DNA from: Planctomycetota bacterium
GTDB lineage: Bacteria; Planctomycetota; Phycisphaerae; WQYP01
Reading direction: 5' to 3'
DNA length: 64,000 nucleotides
NCBI GenBank assembly: GCA_021805985.1
Contig: JAJZDN010000008.1
Span: 26,319-90,318, forward strand
Shown: positions 17,245-62,707 of the stretch, piece by piece
Position numbering within the stretch: the stretch's first letter is position 1
Layout: the number at the start of each line of letters is the position of its first letter
Position numbers and translations under genes: made by a program
Notes under the pieces: generated by a model
Databases searched by the model: none
What the model was told of the DNA's origin: nothing
The model's input: the letters and a program-made list of their open reading frames with translations, nothing else

Positions 17245-18183
17245 TTACAGACCCGCCAAGCGCACATCCTGCTGATCCAGGCAATGCCTTACCTGATCCA
17301 CATGTTCGCCCGTGAGTTGTTTAAGGGCTTCCAGATATTTTCGCCGCGTTTGCTGCACCACATCCGTGGGCAAGGTGGGGCCGGGCGGGCGTTTATTCCA
17401 GGTTAATGTTTCCAGATAATTTCTAACATATTGCTTATCAAAGCTGATCTGTTCCAGTCCTGGTTTGTAATCCACCAGGGGCCAGAAGCGCGAACTGTCT
17501 GGCGTGAGAACTTCATCTATAAGAATGGGGCGTCCGGTTTTCGCATCCAGTCCGAATTCAAATTTGGTGTCCGCCACAATCAGGCCGTGCAGGCGTGCCG
17601 CCTCTGCGGCAATATTGTAAAGCTTGATGGATGTATCACGTAATTCCGTCATCACGCCGCGCCCAACTTTATCGCATGCCTGATCAAACGTAATACTTTC
17701 ATCGTGCCCCTTTTCGGCCTTGGTCGTGGGCGTAAAAATGGGTGTGGGCAATTGCTGGGATAGCATCAAACCATGCGGTAATTTTACTCCGCAGATGGCA
17801 CCGTTTTTTTTGTATTCTTTCCAGCCGCCGCCGGCAATATAACCGCGTACCACGCATTCAATAGGTATCACCGCAGTTTTGCGCACCACCACCGATCGCC
17901 CAGCCAATTGCGCGCGAAAAGGCCTTAGCGCCGCGGGAAATTCCGCCGGCCGCGTGGCCAACAGATGGTGCTTGATATGCGGTGCGAAAAGTGTGAACCA
18001 GTAATTGCTTAATGCTGTGAGGATAATTCCCTTTTCCGGTATGGGCGTAGGTAAAATAACATCAAAAGCGCTGATGCGATCCGTAGCCACAATCAGCAAT
18101 TGCGTGCCAAGATCATACACATCGCGCACCTTGCCGCGCCGCAGTGGAAAACCGGGAATTTCTGTTTCTATAACCGTAGCCAA
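17245..18183 (-). CDS. purC: Phosphoribosylaminoimidazole-succinocarboxamide synthase (SAICAR synthetase, long form)
   Basis: GKVRDVYDLG, ADTKFEFG and the overall length match PurC. Confidence 0.9.
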   Translation of the reverse strand: MATVIETEIPGFPLRRGKVRDVYDLGTQLLIVATDRISAFDVILPTPIPEKGIILTALSNYWFTLFAPHIKHHLLATRPAEFPAALRPFRAQLAGRSVVVRKTAVIPIECVVRGYIAGGGWKEYKKNGAICGVKLPHGLMLSQQLPTPIFTPTTKAEKGHDESITFDQACDKVGRGVMTELRDTSIKLYNIAAEAARLHGLIVADTKFEFGLDAKTGRPILIDEVLTPDSSRFWPLVDYKPGLEQISFDKQYVRNYLETLTWNKRPPGPTLPTDVVQQTRRKYLEALKQLTGEHVDQVRHCLDQQDVRLAGL

Positions 18184-18451
18184 AATACTCTTCTGCCTTT
18201 CCAGTACCCTGAATCGCCGCTAGTTTAGAGATTCGCGGCCGGTATGCAATAGCGCCTCATTAGAGTGCCTCATTAGAGAAGAGAAAATAGAGAGTTGAAA
18301 GTAGCGCAAATTTGGCTGGCCCAAAACAGTGGCTGTGGCGGAGGCGGCGTGGCACCGGCAGAGATAGGCGCAACGTGTTGCCATATTTTTCATTATGACG
18401 GGTGTCAGTTGGCCAAGAGGGCCAGGTGTTTTAACCCTTGGCACTCAGGAG

Positions 18452-18466
18452 GGAGTTAGGAGTTAG
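18452..18466. repeat. GGAGTTA heptamer tandem repeat (2 copies), left boundary of the island
   Basis: ggagttaggagttag. Its reverse complement is found as 4 tandem copies at 21614-21646. Confidence 0.6.
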
Positions 18467-18804
18467 TGCGCGGTTACAGGCTACAGAAATCCGAGGGGGT
18501 AATTTTATTATTCTTTTCAGCGGTGCTTTTCCAATCTGCGGTAGATGGGATTGCTTTATCAGGCCTTTTCGATTTGTGACACTGCGTCACGAATTACGTG
18601 CTGTTGGCGCGCGTCGATCACACCGAGGCAAGGAGGCAGCAGAGAACTGGAGTTCCCCGCGCACCGATTAGGCACTTCGATACGCTGTATTGTGAGATGA
18701 GAAACCCGGCAGTGGGGGGGAGGCCAACGCTGCGCCGTTAGGGCGGGATTAAAGATTTCCGCAAGGCAGGTTATGATCCTGGCCGGAAAGACGAGGATTG
18801 ATCC

Positions 18805-20064
18805 ATGGTCCGATTAATTGAAACGATGAACTACCGATCACTGAAGCGCGTGCGGCAGGAGCTGGATGAGTTCCATGTGCTCGTGGGGCCTAATGCCAGC
18901 GGCAAGAGCACCTTCATGGACGTGTTGGCATTTCTAAGCCGCCTGGTGAACGATGGGTTGGATGCCGCGATTGCCGAGCGAGGTACGTTTGATGATCTCT
19001 GCTGGAACCGCGCGGGACAAAGGTTTGAATTGGCCATTGAGGTTGTCCTGCCGGAGGACTATCGGCAGCTACAGCACGTCTTTCGGGGCGTAGAGCCTTG
19101 CGCCATTCGGTATGAGTTGGCCATTGCAAAGGATGCAGCGGGCACTGTCAAGATCGTTGACGAGCAGGTGCTGCTGGCACGCGACAGCGCCACCTATGAT
19201 CCGGCGGCGTTGAGCAAGGGCATGGAGGATACGGTCTTCATGACGACCACCGGTAACGGTTCTTGGGTTAAGCTGTTAGCGACCACGAAGGCTGGCCCGG
19301 AGTATGCGCTCTCGCGGGAAGTCCAGGACCTCGCACGGCCAGATGAGGATCGATACCACGTGGTGTACCGTCCCAACGGCAAGCGGCCGATCTTTGGAAA
19401 TGTCTCCGAAATTGAGTTCCCGAGCACTGTTGCGCTGGGGCTGCTTCTAAGAGACCAAATCACCAGAGTCGATGTTCGGTCTGACGCCCTGCGTGCGCCG
19501 TCAGCTCCCGGCCAGGGGGCGAGGTTTTCTGGCGATGGGGGAAATCTTCCGTGGTTGATTGATGACCTGAAGGAGAACAAAGTACAGCAATATAGTGATT
19601 GGATCAGGCACGTGAAGACGGCGTTGCGGGGCTTCGAGAGCGTGCGGGTTGTCGAACGTCCGGAGGATCGGAAGCGGTATCTGATGATCCGGTATGCCGG
19701 CGGGCTTGAGGTGCCATCCTGGTGCTGCTCCGACGGTACGTTGTGCCTGCTGGCGCTGACTTTTCTGGCGTATCACTCCAAGCCTGGGGATGTCTATCTG
19801 GTGGAAGAACCGGAATCCCACATCCATCCACTGAACATCGAGCCGGTGATGCAATCCCTCGGCAGTGTTTATGGCGGGCAGGTGCTGGTCTCCACCCATT
19901 CGCCCGCCGTGCTGGCGTTAACGGACGTGGAGGACGTGCTGGCGTTCTCGGCTGATCCGCAAAATGGCACGCGCATTGTGCCCGGCAAGGACCATCCCCG
20001 GCTCCGGGATTGGAAGGGCGAGATAAGTCTCGGGACGCTGTTTGCCAGTGGAGTGCTGGGATGA
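18805..20064 (+). CDS. AAA_21 / ABC-type ATPase (OLD/RloA/AriA-like)
   Basis: Walker A GPNASGKST near the N-terminus, a long insert, then Walker B VYLVEEPESHIHP and an H-loop STHSP. This is the architecture of OLD/PARIS/Gabija-class ABC ATPases. Confidence 0.8.
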   Translation: MVRLIETMNYRSLKRVRQELDEFHVLVGPNASGKSTFMDVLAFLSRLVNDGLDAAIAERGTFDDLCWNRAGQRFELAIEVVLPEDYRQLQHVFRGVEPCAIRYELAIAKDAAGTVKIVDEQVLLARDSATYDPAALSKGMEDTVFMTTTGNGSWVKLLATTKAGPEYALSREVQDLARPDEDRYHVVYRPNGKRPIFGNVSEIEFPSTVALGLLLRDQITRVDVRSDALRAPSAPGQGARFSGDGGNLPWLIDDLKENKVQQYSDWIRHVKTALRGFESVRVVERPEDRKRYLMIRYAGGLEVPSWCCSDGTLCLLALTFLAYHSKPGDVYLVEEPESHIHPLNIEPVMQSLGSVYGGQVLVSTHSPAVLALTDVEDVLAFSADPQNGTRIVPGKDHPRLRDWKGEISLGTLFASGVLG

Positions 20065-20687
20065 GCAGCACGCGGGACATGGATCTGATCGTGCTGGTTC
20101 CCGGCAAAGATGAATCGGCGGCGTTAGAGGCGATGTTTGCTCGCCGGGAAGCAATTGGCATCCGTCCACTTCGCTACAAAATTGAGCGCCACGAGGAACG
20201 GGACCCGGGTTGTCGATTACAAGCACCCGTTTACCTGAGGTCGGCCATTACGCAGTTTGATCATGCGATCGTGATGTTTGACCGGGAAGGTTGCGGCAGA
20301 GAGCAGATGACTCGCGTGGAATTAGAGAAGGATTTGGAATCCAGGCTGGCAACTTCCGGTTGGGGTGACCGGGCGGCGGCAATTGTGATTGACCCCGAGC
20401 TTGAGAACTGGATATGGAGTGATTCACCGCGCGTGGATGATGTATTGGGCTGGAGAGGCAGAACACCTGATTTACGCCAGTGGCTGCGGGACCAACGCAT
20501 GTTGGCGGAAGGCCAGACCAAGCCGCCCCGGCCCAAAGAAGCAACGACCGCCGCCATGAAAAAAGTAATGAAGCGACGGACCTCTGATATCTACACGGAG
20601 ATCGCCTCGTGCGTGAGCCTGACGCGGTGTGTTGATCCGGCATTCTTGAAACTCTTGGGAGTTCTACGCGGCTGGTTTAAGGAGTAA
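20061..20687 (+). CDS. DUF4276/RloB-like small protein (predicted TOPRIM-like partner of the ATPase)
   Basis: ATGA translational coupling to the ATPase. About 208 aa with acidic motifs LIVLVPGKDES, IVMFDREGCGRE and IVIDPELENWIW, as in DUF4276/RloB-type TOPRIM-like proteins. The start was moved from 20010 to the coupled ATG at 20061. Confidence 0.5.
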   Translation: MSSTRDMDLIVLVPGKDESAALEAMFARREAIGIRPLRYKIERHEERDPGCRLQAPVYLRSAITQFDHAIVMFDREGCGREQMTRVELEKDLESRLATSGWGDRAAAIVIDPELENWIWSDSPRVDDVLGWRGRTPDLRQWLRDQRMLAEGQTKPPRPKEATTAAMKKVMKRRTSDIYTEIASCVSLTRCVDPAFLKLLGVLRGWFKE

Positions 20688-20693
20688 ATATCT

Positions 20694-20885
20694 ATGGCTA
20701 AGCAACCCTGGAAAGCGTGGCATGAGTTCGTGAAACCGCGGGATGACTTGCGCTCGGGCGAACTGCCGTTGCACATGTTCGCAGCCGACCTCTACGAAGT
20801 TATGATGCAGAACGGCAAGCGGCCGATCTACGAGAAGCCTGAGAACTTCTTCGCCCTGACTTTCCCCACGCACAACCTGTCTTGA
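20694..20885 (+). pseudogene. N-terminal fragment (63 codons) of a DUF499-type BREX/Pgl ATPase (brxC/pglY-like), truncated
   Basis: MAKQPWKAWHEFVKPRDDLRSGELPLHMFAADLYEVMM...ENFFALTFPT matches the conserved N-terminus of BrxC/PglY-family proteins, which are about 1200 aa. The ORF stops after 63 codons, right at the repeat block. Confidence 0.5.
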
Positions 20886-20900
20886 CGTCAATGATCGATG

Positions 20901-20918
20901 ACCACGGATCACGGATGG
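20901..20918. repeat. ACGGATC heptamer pair, inverted copy of the 21203-21290 array
   Basis: accacggatcacggatgg is the reverse complement of the downstream tgatccg repeat. Confidence 0.6.
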
Positions 20919-21030
20919 TTCTGAAGGCTATAGGCTCCGGGGGGCGGGGAAATCAGAATTTGCCAGTAATCGCAGCATTCATCAGTAGACCCAGCATTGG
21001 ACCGTGGATTCAGCATTGAGCAGCCAGCTC

Positions 21031-21087
21031 AGATTCCAGATCCCAAATTCCAAATTCCAGGTTCCAGGTTCCAGGTTCCAAATTCCC
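21031..21087. repeat. ATTCCAR heptamer tandem array (about 8 copies)
   Basis: agattccagatcccaaattccaaattccaggttccaggttccaggttccaaattcc. Confidence 0.8.
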
Positions 21088-21088
21088 C

Positions 21089-21170
21089 CTCTCCAATCGG
21101 GCCGCCGCCCGATCCGCTCTACTGCTCACCTCTCAAAATTCACCTCTCTAATCGGGCCGCAGCCCGATTT
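21089..21170. repeat. Two direct copies of a 27-bp element, each with a perfect GC-rich hairpin
   Basis: ctctccaatcgggccgccgcccgatcc and ctctctaatcgggccgcagcccgattt. Each contains the palindrome atcgggc-N4-gcccgat. Confidence 0.75.
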
Positions 21171-21202
21171 CCCGTGCCCCTCGCGCCCTATAGCCCCGGT
21201 AT

Positions 21203-21290
21203 TGATCCGTGATCCGTGATCCATGATCCATGATCCGTGATCCGTGATCCGTGATCCGTGATCCGTGATCCGTGATCCGTGATCCGTGAT
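21203..21290. repeat. TGATCCG heptamer tandem array (about 12 copies, two TGATCCA variants)
   Basis: tgatccgtgatccgtgatccatgatccatgatccg... read directly from the sequence. Confidence 0.9.
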
Positions 21291-21613
21291 AACTGATCAC
21301 CGCCCGCTATTTGAAAACCAAATAATCCCCCAAGATCGCATGGCCCGCAATCCACAACCGCCACGCGTCGCGTCCTAAACTCCTTGCCCTGCACGCAAAC
21401 TCCCCCTGTTTAGCGTCGTCGCCCGGCGACGAGCGCCGCCAATACCAGACCAACCCCACTGGTATCCGCGTAATCTGGGCAATCCGCAAAATCTGTGGAC
21501 CCTCCGCCTCCGCGCCCTCGACGACCTCTGTGGCTCTTTCCGGCTGTCCCCTGTAACCCGTAACCTCGCACGGCATCCCGCATTTAGCATTTAGCCGCGC
21601 AGCGCTTCCAAAA

Positions 21614-21646
21614 ACTTCTAACTCCTAACTTCTAACTCCTAAGTCC
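21614..21646. repeat. CTAACTY heptamer array (4 copies), inverted partner of 18452-18466, right boundary of the island
   Basis: cttctaactcctaacttctaactcctaagtcc. Confidence 0.6.
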
Positions 21647-22227
21647 GTTCTCGTAAACCCCAGAATACTAAAACCCAAAATAACTTGGCCATCTTGGCCA
21701 CCTTGAACCAAACCCTCTAAAATCAACCCCTTCCTCTACATGTCCAACCTGGCCACCTAGCCTCTTTAACCTGGCCTCCTTGGCCCCCTTTGGCCCCCTT
21801 GATATCCACCACAATGAGCAATCAATAAATGCTCACATATTCCAAACTCCTCATCCCTGCGTTTAAAAAACAGTTTTCCACCTTGCAGCCGGAAACGGGC
21901 GCGAAAACTCCCCGTCGCCCTTCCCGGCAAAACGCCAGACGCCGTCTGACAAATTGGAGGCCACTGCGATCGGCTCGGAATCAGCAAGCAAATCAGGAAG
22001 CATAATAATCCCGACACCGCCCGGACAATCCTCTCCGTTCCCTCCGCCACCTCTTGTGAATTAACGTCTTTTGCGTTCAGAATCATTGAATTGCTTTTTT
22101 TACCACGCAGGCGGGGGGTTGGGGTATACTTTGGGGCTGCGAAGGTGGCCTGGCCGCGGATGCGGTGGAATTTTGGGCGGGCGGTATAAAGAGTCCCGGT
22201 TGGCTATCGGGTTTGGAAAAGAGATTC

Positions 22228-22638
22228 ATGAGCAAAATACTGTTGGCAGTTTCCGAACAATGGACGCCGGATAAGCGCATGGACGCTCTGGGGCAGTGGG
22301 CCAATCGTATGGATGCGCCGATTATTGCGGTGCATGTGGTGGTGGGGCTTTCGGAAAGTGCCAAGGAAGATAGTCCGGGCGAACGGGCGCTTAAAGATGT
22401 TGTCATTCAGTTAAAAAAGACCAATCCGCGGGTAGAATCGCAGCTTTTATTTGCCAATGATCTGGTAGATGGACTTTTTCAGGCCGCTACCGAGCATGAA
22501 GCTACAATGATTGTGCTGGGGCTTTCCCGGCACGGTGTGCTGGAGCGGCTGATTGAAGGCAACATTCAGCGGGCGATTCTGAATAATAGCCGCCTGCCGA
22601 TTTTGGCTCTGCCACCCGATTGGAACGGCATTATCTGA
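22228..22638 (+). CDS. Universal stress protein family (UspA-like)
   Basis: About 137 aa. ILLAVSE...IIAVHVV...TMIVLGLSRHGVLERL matches the Usp alpha/beta fold pattern. Confidence 0.7.
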   Translation: MSKILLAVSEQWTPDKRMDALGQWANRMDAPIIAVHVVVGLSESAKEDSPGERALKDVVIQLKKTNPRVESQLLFANDLVDGLFQAATEHEATMIVLGLSRHGVLERLIEGNIQRAILNNSRLPILALPPDWNGII

Positions 22639-22682
22639 TTAAACGGTTGCCATGAAATATTATTTGAAGGTTTTACAAAATT

Positions 22683-25619
22683 ATGAACGCGCAAGCTGCC
22701 CCTGTGATTTCCAACGTTGATTCCCGAGCCGGCCGGAATTGGGCTTTACTGGAACCGGCGGGTGGGTTTGCCGCCCGCCATAACGGCCCGTCCGACGATG
22801 AAGTTGTGCTGATGCTGCAAACGCTCGGGCTGGCTTCCCTGGATGATCTGGTGGATAAGACCGTTCCGTCCGCCATCCGCATGAGCCGCAAACTGGCGCT
22901 GCCCGCGCCGCTTTCCGAACGCGCGCTATTGGAAAAATTAAATGTCATGGGATCGAAAAATAAAAAATTTCGGTCGCTCATCGGCATGGGCTATTACGGC
23001 TGCATCACGGCACCGGTTATACAGCGCAACATTCTGGAAAATCCGGGTTGGTATACCCAATATACGCCTTACCAGGCGGAAATTGCCCAAGGGCGGCTGG
23101 AAGCCTTGCTGAATTTCCAGACCATGATAGCAGAACTTACCGCATTACCTGTTTCCAATGCGTCCTTATTGGATGAAGCCACCGCCGCCGCGGAAGCCAT
23201 GGCCATGTGCCATTCCGTCGCCGAGCCGGGGCGTAACGTATTTTTCATCGCAGAAAATTGCCATCCACAAACCATTGACGTGGTGCACACCCGTGCCATG
23301 GGCCTGGGCATTACGCCGGTGGTCGGTGCTGCGTCACAAATAGATTGCAAATCCGGAAAAATCTTCGGCATGTTGGTGCAATATCCCGCAACCGACGGCC
23401 AGATTATTCCCCTGGATGAGCTGGCGAAGCAGGCCCATCACGGCGGAATTAAACTCGTGGTAGCAACAGATCTTCTGACCCTGACCATCCTGCGGCCGCC
23501 GGGAGAATTCGGAGCTGATATTGCCGTGGGTTCCAGCCAGCGGTTGGGAATGCCGATGGGGTACGGCGGCCCACATGCGGGTTTCCTGGCGGCACGGGAG
23601 GAATTTACCCGGAAAATGCCAGGACGCATTGTGGGTATTTCGCGGGATGTCAATGGCGAGCCGGCCTACCGACTGGCGATTCAAACCCGGGAACAACACA
23701 TTCGGCGGGAAAAAGCCACCAGCAACATCTGCACCGCGCAGGTTTTGCCGGCGATTATTTCTGCCGCGCACGCGATCTATCATGGCCCGCAAGGCCTGAC
23801 GGATATTGCCCTGCGCATCCATGCCTGGACGCTGGTTTTGGCCGGCGGATTGGAACGCATGGGCTACAAAATCATGCATGAACATTATTTTGATACGCTG
23901 CGAATTATTCCATCGCCCGGCGTAACAACCCAACAAATTATACAGGACGCCGCAACGCGGAAATTTAATTTCCGTCCATTCGGGGACGGAACTATTGGCT
24001 TATCCCTGGATGAATTAACGGATCTTGAAGAAGTGCACTCGCTACTGCATGTATTTTCGCAGGGCCGGCCTCTGCCTTATCTGCTGAATCAAGTGGTCCA
24101 GGATATGCGTATGCAATATCCAACGGCCCTGGCCCGTACCAGCCGTTTCCTGACGCATCCGGTATTTAATACCCACCATAGCGAAACCGAAATACAACGT
24201 TATTTGCGCATGCTGGAATCACGGGATCTTTCATTGACCACGTCCATGATTCCGCTGGGGTCATGCACAATGAAACTTAATGCCGCCGTGGAAATGATGC
24301 CCATCACCGCACCGCATTGGGCGGATGTACACCCATTCTGCCCGCCGGATCAGGCGGCGGGTTATCAGATTTTAATGAGCCAGCTTGAACGGTTTTTATG
24401 TGAAATTACAGGCTTCTCGGCCGTATCATTCCAGCCCAATGCGGGTTCTCAGGGCGAATACGCCGGCTTAATGACGATTCGGGCGTACCATAGCGGGCAG
24501 GGGCAATCGGGTAGAAATATCTGCCTGATTCCCGTTTCCGCGCATGGCACCAATCCGGCCAGTGCGACCGTCGCGGGTTTGCAGGTCGTGCCGGTGGCCT
24601 GCGATGCGCACGGCGATATTGATCTGCAGGATTTGCGCCGCCTAGCGCAACAGCATCAGGAAAATCTCTCCTGTCTGATGGCAACTTACCCCTCCACGCA
24701 CGGGGTATTTGAAGAGCATATCCGGGAAATTTGTGACATTGTTCATGCCCATGGCGGCCAAATTTACATGGACGGGGCCAACATGAACGCCCAGGTGGGC
24801 CTGTGTCGTCCGGCGGATATGGGGGCGGATGTCTGCCACTTGAATTTGCATAAAACCTTTTGTATTCCGCATGGCGGTGGCGGCCCGGGAATGGGTCCCA
24901 TCGCCGTGGCTGAACATCTGATTCCGTATTTGCCGGGCCACCCGGTAATTGGCATGGGCACCGCCAAATCCCTGGGAACCATTTCCGCGGCACCGTATGG
25001 CAGTGCTTTAATTCTTATTATTCCATGGGCATATATCAGTCTGATGAGTGGTTCAGGCCTGACCCGTGCCACGGAACTGGCCATCCTGAATGCCAATTAC
25101 ATGGCTGCCCGCTTAAAAGAACATTATCCGATCCGTTTTGTCGGCACACGCGGGTTCTGTGCCCATGAATTTATTGTGGATGCCAGAGAGTTTGAAGCCT
25201 CAGCGGGAATTAAAGTTGAAGACATCGCCAAGCGCCTCATGGACTACAGCTTTCACGCGCCGACCGTTTCCTGGCCGGAGCCAGGGACATTGATGATTGA
25301 ACCCACGGAAAGCGAAAGTAAAGCAGAGTTGGACCGTTTTTGTGATGCCATGATCGCGATCCGCAATGAAATAAGGGAAATTGAAAGCGGGAAAGCCGAT
25401 CGTAAAAACAACGTGCTGAAAAATGCTCCGCATACGGCGCGCATGTTGGCCAGCGAAACATGGCCCCATGGCTACAGCCGCGAAAAGGCTGCCTATCCGC
25501 TGGATTATCTGAAAGCCCATAAATTTTGGCCGGCGGTCGGGCGCATAGATAATCCGTATGGTGATCGTAACCTGGTGTGCTCCTGCCCACCGATGCCGCA
25601 AAAAGAGGAAATATCATGA
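22683..25619 (+). CDS. gcvP: Glycine dehydrogenase (decarboxylating), single-chain P-protein
   Basis: 978 aa. The region around SMIPLGSCTMKLNA, and the lysine context CHLNLHKTFCIPHGGGGPGMGP, are diagnostic of GcvP. Confidence 0.9.
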   Translation: MNAQAAPVISNVDSRAGRNWALLEPAGGFAARHNGPSDDEVVLMLQTLGLASLDDLVDKTVPSAIRMSRKLALPAPLSERALLEKLNVMGSKNKKFRSLIGMGYYGCITAPVIQRNILENPGWYTQYTPYQAEIAQGRLEALLNFQTMIAELTALPVSNASLLDEATAAAEAMAMCHSVAEPGRNVFFIAENCHPQTIDVVHTRAMGLGITPVVGAASQIDCKSGKIFGMLVQYPATDGQIIPLDELAKQAHHGGIKLVVATDLLTLTILRPPGEFGADIAVGSSQRLGMPMGYGGPHAGFLAAREEFTRKMPGRIVGISRDVNGEPAYRLAIQTREQHIRREKATSNICTAQVLPAIISAAHAIYHGPQGLTDIALRIHAWTLVLAGGLERMGYKIMHEHYFDTLRIIPSPGVTTQQIIQDAATRKFNFRPFGDGTIGLSLDELTDLEEVHSLLHVFSQGRPLPYLLNQVVQDMRMQYPTALARTSRFLTHPVFNTHHSETEIQRYLRMLESRDLSLTTSMIPLGSCTMKLNAAVEMMPITAPHWADVHPFCPPDQAAGYQILMSQLERFLCEITGFSAVSFQPNAGSQGEYAGLMTIRAYHSGQGQSGRNICLIPVSAHGTNPASATVAGLQVVPVACDAHGDIDLQDLRRLAQQHQENLSCLMATYPSTHGVFEEHIREICDIVHAHGGQIYMDGANMNAQVGLCRPADMGADVCHLNLHKTFCIPHGGGGPGMGPIAVAEHLIPYLPGHPVIGMGTAKSLGTISAAPYGSALILIIPWAYISLMSGSGLTRATELAILNANYMAARLKEHYPIRFVGTRGFCAHEFIVDAREFEASAGIKVEDIAKRLMDYSFHAPTVSWPEPGTLMIEPTESESKAELDRFCDAMIAIRNEIREIESGKADRKNNVLKNAPHTARMLASETWPHGYSREKAAYPLDYLKAHKFWPAVGRIDNPYGDRNLVCSCPPMPQKEEIS

Positions 25620-39744: not shown

Positions 39745-39886
39745 CCCATTTGAAATTTAAAATTTGAGATTTGAAAAACCTAAAGTTGGCGGCTGCGCGG
39801 TGAGCTTGTGTGGGCTTGATCTTGTGTATCTGTTGGCCCCCGGGGCGATTCAGGCTTATAATCGCTTTGATATTGGAGAATACTAA

Positions 39887-61382: not shown

Positions 61383-62707
<1,325 letters not shown>

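Follow-up and report, generated by a model that had tools for sequence, protein, structure and literature searches.

The ATPase and Toprim genes and their truncated neighbours

The locus described here lies in a 64-kb window, by which we mean the whole stretch of 64,000 nucleotides that was analysed (contig JAJZDN010000008.1 of a Planctomycetota bacterium), and whose housekeeping proteins place the host in the Phycisphaerae. It consists of two intact genes on the + strand, one encoding an ABC ATPase and the other a protein of predicted Toprim fold, which belong to the family named MAD3/MAD4 in MADS systems and HEC-01A/HEC-01B in PADLOC, and which are set between the truncated ends of two genes of an Hma system. 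An earlier note on this DNA had described open reading frames (ORFs) of 419 and 208 amino acids with an ATGA overlap and a number of quoted motifs, all of which are present as described, and had read them as a split OLD/PARIS-like ABC ATPase and Toprim nuclease, a reading that the family profiles and the fold of the smaller protein support. Neither gene contains an internal stop. The ATG of MAD4 at 20061 overlaps the TGA stop codon of MAD3 (20062-20064) by 4 nt and, to judge from this arrangement, MAD4 is translationally coupled to MAD3.

The first gene (18805..20064, + strand) encodes the 419-residue MAD3, which is matched by the Pfam families AAA_21 (E=1.5e-24) and AAA_15 (E=3.3e-15). Its best match among the PADLOC models is HEC-01A (E=5.7e-37, residues 5-418), followed by mad3 (E=4.5e-35), and AriA, AbiLi (E=4.6e-18), Old, NsnB and GajA (E=4.7e-15) rank lower. 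Profile searches of both proteins, proposed in the earlier note as a check, thus returned the expected AAA_21 and AAA_15 families and the HEC-01A, mad3, mad4 and HEC-01B models of PADLOC, with no match to DUF4435. The features that define the ABC ATPase clade, namely Walker A, a signature-like motif, Walker B, an H-loop and the ABC head fold, could all be identified in MAD3, the last in an AlphaFold2 model with a pLDDT (predicted local distance difference test) score of 84.8. The Walker A motif, GPNASGKST (residues 28-36; 18886..18912, + strand), is conserved among homologues, G28, N30, G33 and K34 being invariant both in 23 homologues derived from the loci compared here and in 47 from databases. 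Far downstream, the stretch from the Walker B/D-loop VYLVEEPESHIHP (residues 330-342), which includes LVEEPESHIHP at residues 332-342, to the H-loop STHSP (residues 363-367) occupies 19792..19905 on the + strand, with a signature-like SDGT (residues 309-312) slightly upstream of Walker B. In the same two sets of homologues E334, E335, P336, E337, H341 and P342 are invariant, and H365 is invariant in the 23 locus-derived sequences and present in at least 90% of the 47 others. Walker A, SDGT, EEPE (residues 334-337) and H365, all of them invariant or nearly so among homologues, are intact in the window protein.

The second gene (20061..20687, + strand) encodes MAD4, 208 residues long, which comprises an OLD-type Toprim domain and a C-terminal helical region. 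It passes the NCBIfam equivalog NF047734 with 201 bits against a cutoff of 160 (E=2.2e-59, residues 8-206), and is matched more weakly by the PADLOC models mad4 (E=3.3e-5) and HEC-01B (E=6.4e-4). The protein carries the motifs LIVLVPGKDES, IVMFDREGCGRE and DPELENWIW. The earlier note had called it acidic, which it is not, being slightly basic with an isoelectric point of 8.4 and 33 Asp and Glu against 35 Lys and Arg residues. It had also assigned the protein to the DUF4276 type; a match to this Pfam family (PF14103) does exist, but at 18.2 bits it falls below the gathering threshold of 30.2 and spans residues 37-194 only, leaving the strand-1 motif outside, and a precomputed PF14103 match is found in only a few MAD4 homologues. 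A 2025 paper in Nucleic Acids Research has placed DUF4276/Mad4 in the Toprim superfamily.

The AlphaFold2 model of MAD4, built from 45 homologues (pLDDT 91.5), has the alpha/beta fold of Toprim domains, and its nearest solved relatives are Toprim nucleases. The top four PDB matches found by Foldseek are Toprim-plus-helical regions from the C-terminus of class 2 OLD proteins, with template modelling (TM) scores of 0.47-0.54 and probabilities of 0.99-1.00, and Ts OLD, AriB and GajA are matched as well, so that the structural comparison with TOPRIM folds that the earlier note had called for turned out in favour of its reading. At the sequence level, the MAD4 profile did not match any solved structure (best E=1.4); on the evidence of the predicted model, its Toprim kinship is visible by fold comparison only. 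Two putative metal-site acidic clusters are encoded within 20280..20405 (+ strand), D74-R-E76-G77-C-G79 after strand 3 and D111-P112-E113-L-E115 after strand 4, the strands being those of the predicted model. D48, D74, G77, G79, P112, E113, E115, K154 and P155 are invariant in the 45 homologues, with D111 present in 43 and E76 in 35 of them.

Upstream of the pair, positions 18751..18801 (+ strand) retain the 3' end of hmaB, the gene for a DUF1156-type methyltransferase, as its last 16 codons, KDFRKAGYDPGRKDED (18751-18798), plus the stop codon and without a start codon. The encoded peptide is 100% identical to the C-terminus of a 352-residue ORF fragment upstream of the pair in the related metagenome locus L023, and this fragment is in turn 62% identical to a 1073-residue protein of locus L005 that is recognized as DUF1156 (NCBIfam DUF1156_antiphage, E=7.5e-51). 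DNA homology between the window and L023 starts sharply at ~18750. Downstream lies the 5' remnant of hmaC, the gene for a DUF499 ATPase (20694..20885, + strand), with 62 homologous codons (20694-20879) followed by a Ser codon and a stop. This hmaC stub is matched by the PADLOC model HmaC (E=4.1e-7) and shares 82-87% identity with the first 62 residues of complete DUF499 proteins (~1,100 residues) from L005 and L008, the homology ending exactly after ...FPTHNL (codon 62). The neighbour that the earlier note had taken for a BREX-type gene relic is therefore a relic indeed, and more precisely what is left of a DUF499/HmaC gene, its first 62 codons. A frameshifted continuation of hmaC was considered and rejected, as neither three-frame translation nor tblastn with two full-length DUF499 proteins recovered anything past codon 62. 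Elsewhere in the 64 kb, tblastn with full-length proteins found no other DUF499 or DUF1156 similarity, HmaA not having been searched directly. The stub has preserved its start codon, with an AGGAG upstream, and public assemblies still call it as a 63-residue gene. It carries the window-specific substitutions V12F, L15P and Y59H at sites conserved in L005 and L008 (the first two also in L023), which, few as the sites are, would be compatible with relaxed constraint.

Thus, in place of complete hmaA, hmaB and hmaC genes, 16 codons of hmaB and 62 of hmaC are left, and the homology of both flanks was confirmed against full-length relatives. Since the hmaB tail and the hmaC head flank the pair, the 2.13 kb made up of hmaB tail, MAD3, MAD4 and hmaC head are a piece of an Hma operon. 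To judge from these flanks, the remnants are of Hma type and not of MADS type, and the pair derives from its usual place between hmaB and hmaC of an Hma or 'BREX-related' system. According to a 2024 study, hmaB and hmaC are separated in every Halomonas hma locus by an AAA_21 ATPase gene and another gene without annotation. The relative L023, with MAD3 93% and MAD4 92% identical to the proteins of the window, keeps both neighbours, viz., the upstream hmaB ORF of 352 residues, which runs off the contig start, and 34 codons of hmaC up to the contig end.

A segment of MAD3 (residues 181-227; 19345-19485) resembles the N-terminus of DUF499, as represented by residues 31-62 of the hmaC stub (20784-20879). 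The two share the pattern NGKRPI[F/Y] ... FP[S/T] ... L[L/V]RD and a 19-nt exact DNA match (19375-19393 = 20811-20829), and their local alignment score of 56 was reached by none of 300 shuffles (30.5 +/- 4.9; z=5.2). The motif is limited to the window clade of MAD3 (the window, L023, L024 and L025); it is missing in the embedded pairs of L005, L087 and L098 (z<1), and L069 has it in weak form (z=2.0). The resemblance may stem from gene conversion over a short tract or from an interaction motif that both proteins share.

The insertion site and related loci

Alignment with sister Phycisphaerae lineages locates the Hma fragment within an insertion of ~3.86 kb (3,864 bp; 18256..22119, no strand assigned) between purC and usp, with boundaries that are approximate (left 18256-18320, right 22060-22120). 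In sister lineages with purC at least 90% identical, the two genes are adjacent and divergent, ~318 bp apart. The window segments 17245-18255 and 22120-22700 could be aligned to loci L114, L116 and L117 at 82-84% identity, and about 138 bp in those loci stand where the window has 18256-22119. These empty sites were recovered with purC variants from a 90%-identity cluster, the exact flanking proteins having retrieved the same allele only. An identical locus is found in at least four independent metagenome assemblies and is therefore not an assembly artefact. Genes within 10 kb on either side encode ABC transporters, AroA, PurC, Usp, GcvP, an MFS transporter and a glycosyl hydrolase, together with three proteins of 301, 369 and 535 residues that have no Pfam hit.

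Besides the Hma fragment, the insert is made up of two non-coding arms, neither assigned to a strand. The left arm (18256..18750, ~494 bp) has no convincing ORF and resembles neither L023 nor the empty sites. It harbors a 13-nt perfect tandem duplication (GCCTCATTAGAGT x1.9, 18254-18278), which lies at the left junction, exactly where homology to the empty purC-usp site begins fading. The right arm (20886..22119, 1.24 kb) is characterized by tandem arrays of heptanucleotides and a strongly negative GC skew that drops to -0.41. Tandem Repeats Finder identified arrays of TGATCCG (x12.6, 21203-21290), of a CAGATTC type with the units CAGATTC/CAAATTC/CAGGTTC (x8, 21030-21086) and of AACTCCT (x4.9, 21613-21646). 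These crowd ~0.9 kb (20890-21800), where GCATTTA x2 and a 9-10-mer array, TGGCCCCCT, are also seen, and a short inverted run of CGGATCA (20895-20916) lies immediately where hmaC is cut off. The rest of the 64 kb has a single heptamer array (39748-39776), and assemblies of the same strain break within the TGATCCG array. No second copy of the right-arm sequence was found in any sequence compared, and an Rfam scan of 18100-22750 gave no match at E<=0.1.

A transposon-like structure was considered on account of mirrored inverted-repeat pieces in the two arms (18407-18486 and 21544-21703) and rejected as unsupported, since their local alignment score of 65 is not clearly higher than that of shuffled sequences (48.6 +/- 7.3, maximum 75), and since no target-site duplication, integrase, transposase or tRNA was found at the insertion, the sole tRNA of the window being at 61383. 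The fragment may have arrived alone, or it may be what erosion has left of a complete Hma system inserted here.

A scan of contigs with single sequences recovered only four close loci, and an alignment-based scan of metagenomes far more. We surveyed the context of the best 80 of at least 562 metagenome loci, together with loci fetched earlier, by checking their flanks for DUF1156 and DUF499 with two query proteins per family and by annotating ten neighbours. The pair has no such neighbours in 19 loci with at least 3 kb of sequence on each side, nor in a further nine with at least 1 kb, and is embedded in seven. The flanks of the stand-alone pairs are heterogeneous, and gyrB, valS, nnr and an aminotransferase gene are among the neighbours annotated. 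In a MAD4 tree built by neighbour joining, drawn without support values, embedded and stand-alone states interleave and require at least seven changes; the window clade alone runs from the embedded L023 through the window relic and the stand-alone L024, L025 and L017 to the embedded P0006 and L008. A phage origin was rejected, a search with the MAD4 alignment having found no relative in 2.9 million viral contigs.

Some of the surveyed loci show other arrangements. For example, in L061 (L061:5551-12467) a MAD3/MAD4-type pair lies between a Mod-like N6_N4_Mtase protein of 749 aa and a protein of 892 aa with a ResIII domain, and this operon, which resembles type III restriction-modification operons and not Hma or MADS, would be a third kind of host system for the module. 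In L105 (L105:10001-16470) both the DUF1156 and the DUF499 gene lie downstream of the pair, which shows that the module can occupy different positions in Hma-type operons. The Hma-type operon of L005 has upstream of it (L005:399-6786) a 913-aa AAA-like ATPase of the TrlF family (534 bits) and another, distant ABC ATPase of 427 aa (only 94 bits with the MAD3 model), which has its own 222-aa partner; the whole gives the impression of ATPase-based modules stacked in a single locus.

A probable orphaned defence module and its alternatives

Based on the family assignments and the flanking remnants, we consider that the locus is probably an orphaned HEC-01 or MAD3/MAD4 pair that once belonged to an Hma system, in which, by analogy with characterized relatives, MAD3 would serve as a sensor or regulator and MAD4 as a nuclease. 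The family itself is already catalogued, and the locus is an orphaned addition to a known type. HEC-01 was described as a pair of ABC ATPase and TOPRIM protein that lies within Hma systems (Payne et al. 2024, bioRxiv 10.1101/2024.01.29.577857; PADLOC-DB). In the MADS system of Pseudomonas aeruginosa, mad3 and mad4 are each needed for defence, a mad3 deletion strain methylates without restricting, mad5 cannot be deleted unless mad2 or mad3 is deleted too, and the system shows mad3-dependent toxicity (Maestri et al. 2023, bioRxiv 10.1101/2023.03.30.534895). The roles of sensor and nuclease are proposed on the model of PARIS, Gabija and OLD nucleases, and they agree with this mad3-dependent restriction and toxicity. 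MAD3 would accordingly be an ATP-driven sensor or regulator that holds or licenses MAD4; when cued by a phage, for instance by an anti-restriction protein or by foreign DNA, MAD4 would cleave nucleic acid (DNA or tRNA) via its acidic metal site, and the phage would be restricted or the infection aborted. Since stand-alone pairs among housekeeping genes are common in relatives, we lean slightly towards the pair still working here without Hma.

To judge from comparison with L023 and the wider family, both genes are under purifying selection and keep all family-invariant motifs. Amino acid replacements polarised by outgroups show no excess on the window branch relative to that of L023 (15 against 9 in MAD3, 4 against 6 in MAD4), and relaxed selection on the window branch was not detected. 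Several points weigh against the reading of a working orphaned pair. The ratios of nonsynonymous to synonymous divergence (dN/dS) from L023, 0.17 for MAD3 and 0.13 for MAD4 at a dS of 0.2-0.3, average over the whole divergence from that locus, and a very recent loss of function would be invisible to them. A promoter scan, of a kind that may not suit Planctomycetota, detected nothing resembling a sigma-70 site on the + strand upstream of MAD3. MAD3 scores 398.2 bits against the NCBIfam equivalog NF047739 in a full-length alignment (E=5e-119), just under the curated cutoff of 420. Position 14 of MAD4 is Ala or Pro and never Glu, so that the canonical Toprim Glu after strand 1 is missing; an Asp at position 15 or 17 in 45 of the 45 homologues (mostly D15/N17, with G15/D17 in the window clade) is consistent with a relocated metal ligand. 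HEC-01 alone gave no protection against a phage panel in Escherichia coli (10.1101/2024.01.29.577857), and in MADS the pair acts within an eight-gene system (10.1101/2023.03.30.534895), which speaks against taking its autonomy for granted.

Some of these points would also be expected if the pair were a non-functional leftover, that is, a subunit of a complete Hma or MADS system in which disabling mutations have not yet accumulated. The host system is gone, as its two truncated genes show; the lack of a recognisable + strand promoter and the substitutions V12F, L15P and Y59H in the hmaC stub would fit a decaying locus, and the inactivity of HEC-01 by itself, the integral place of mad3 and mad4 in MADS and the conditions under which mad5 can be lost all speak for dependence on a larger system. 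We nevertheless think this alternative unlikely, as dN/dS lies at 0.13-0.17, replacements are not in excess on the window branch, the invariant catalytic residues are all kept, and clean stand-alone pairs without Hma remnants form the majority of the relatives that could be judged, which would be odd if the pair were useless.

A second alternative is selfish addiction of the toxin-antitoxin kind, with a toxic MAD4 nuclease checked by MAD3 and a cost attached to losing the pair. Pfam labels AAA_21 as 'putative AbiEii toxin, Type IV TA system', PDB entries name the AriA protein of PARIS an 'antitoxin', toxicity in MADS depends on mad3, and the pair is mobile, patchy and spread across unrelated genomic contexts. 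Against this, it was absent from the viral contigs mentioned above, no plasmid or mobile-element genes adjoin it here, and the characterized relatives (MADS, PARIS, Gabija and OLD) serve phage defence. Addiction by itself thus seems quite improbable, and it can in any case coexist with defence by abortive infection. A housekeeping role in DNA repair or chromosome maintenance, with a RecF-, Rad50- or SMC-like ATPase and a Toprim partner, is effectively refuted, as sister lineages with purC at least 90% identical have no pair at this site, the genomic contexts are not conserved, the specific family models are those of defence families and MAD3 has no coiled-coil insertion of the SMC/Rad50 type; the pair is thus not part of a conserved housekeeping operon, an arrangement that the earlier note had said would refute its reading.

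Returning to the orphaned pair, the question at stake is whether embedded pairs of ABC ATPase and Toprim protein, whose hosts include Hma/BREX-related systems, MADS and one type III restriction-modification-like operon, are integral subunits or independent defence modules. A 2026 paper in Nucleic Acids Research, which renames Hma "DUF499-centred BREX-related", regards OLD-ABC plus TOPRIM modules as backup effectors. The present pair appears to have been caught just after leaving its host system with purifying selection persisting, which favours autonomy, as does the greater frequency of stand-alone over Hma-embedded pairs among the metagenome loci that could be judged. The locus may then be viewed as a natural 'excision experiment', in which ATPase-Toprim modules embedded in Hma systems are autonomous immune units that leave the host system and defend alone. 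As a more speculative extension of this idea, residues 181-227 of MAD3, including NGKRPIF, might serve as a decoy or as a shared motif for interaction, by which the module would notice attacks on its host system, much as PARIS senses anti-restriction proteins. We put this larger proposal forward as tentative, and as having perhaps a minor chance of being right. The added value of the locus is modest: natural evidence that embedded modules can persist independently.

Comparison with known systems

Among known systems, the closest is HEC-01, with which the locus shares a gene for an ABC ATPase (HEC-01A) and, directly after it on the same strand, one for a Toprim protein (HEC-01B), the gene arrangement by which HEC-01 is recognized, and whose position between hmaB and hmaC is kept here in the form of gene remnants. 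Unlike in HEC-01, the Hma host system is deleted, and the HEC-01B models match MAD4 only weakly (E=6.4e-4), mad4 being the better match. The representative of HEC-01 that was tested gave no defence, which leaves function putative across the class. With MADS the pair shares gene order, size and coupling, with MAD4 passing the equivalog cutoff and MAD3 nearly so, whereas the helix-turn-helix, N6-methyltransferase, specificity subunit, kinase, DptG-like and HerA-like genes of that system are not present here. In particular, none of the mandatory MAD6-8 (kinase, DptG-like and HerA-like), the methyltransferase and the specificity subunit was found within ~10 genes of the pair.

The PARIS paper in Nature lists "MADS3-4" among systems of ABC ATPase and TOPRIM protein. 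The pair does not belong to PARIS itself, as the AriA models rank below HEC-01A and mad3 and match partially, and a phmmer comparison with AriA structures gave E=9e-4. AriB is of DUF4435 type and ~300 residues long (PMC11464382), whereas MAD4 is DUF4276-like with 208 residues, at 12-17% identity, and nothing here indicates cleavage of tRNA by MAD4 in particular or an AriA-type scaffold formed by MAD3. In class 2 OLD proteins of Burkholderia and Xanthomonas (PDB identifiers 6nk8 and 6njw) and in class 1 Ts OLD (PDB identifier 6p74), the ATPase and the Toprim domain are fused, whereas they are encoded by separate genes here, and MAD4 differs from OLD in having Ala or Pro in place of the canonical Glu after strand 1, with an Asp one or three residues on. 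Gabija GajA, RloA/RloB and AbiLi/AbiLii similarly combine an ABC ATPase of the AAA_21/AAA_15 type with a partner or domain of the Toprim superfamily, and none of these three is the best profile match here. GajA differs as a fused protein that works with the helicase GajB, and RloB and AbiLii belong to other Toprim families, while RloA/RloB resemble the present pair and its relatives in being embedded in restriction-modification loci.

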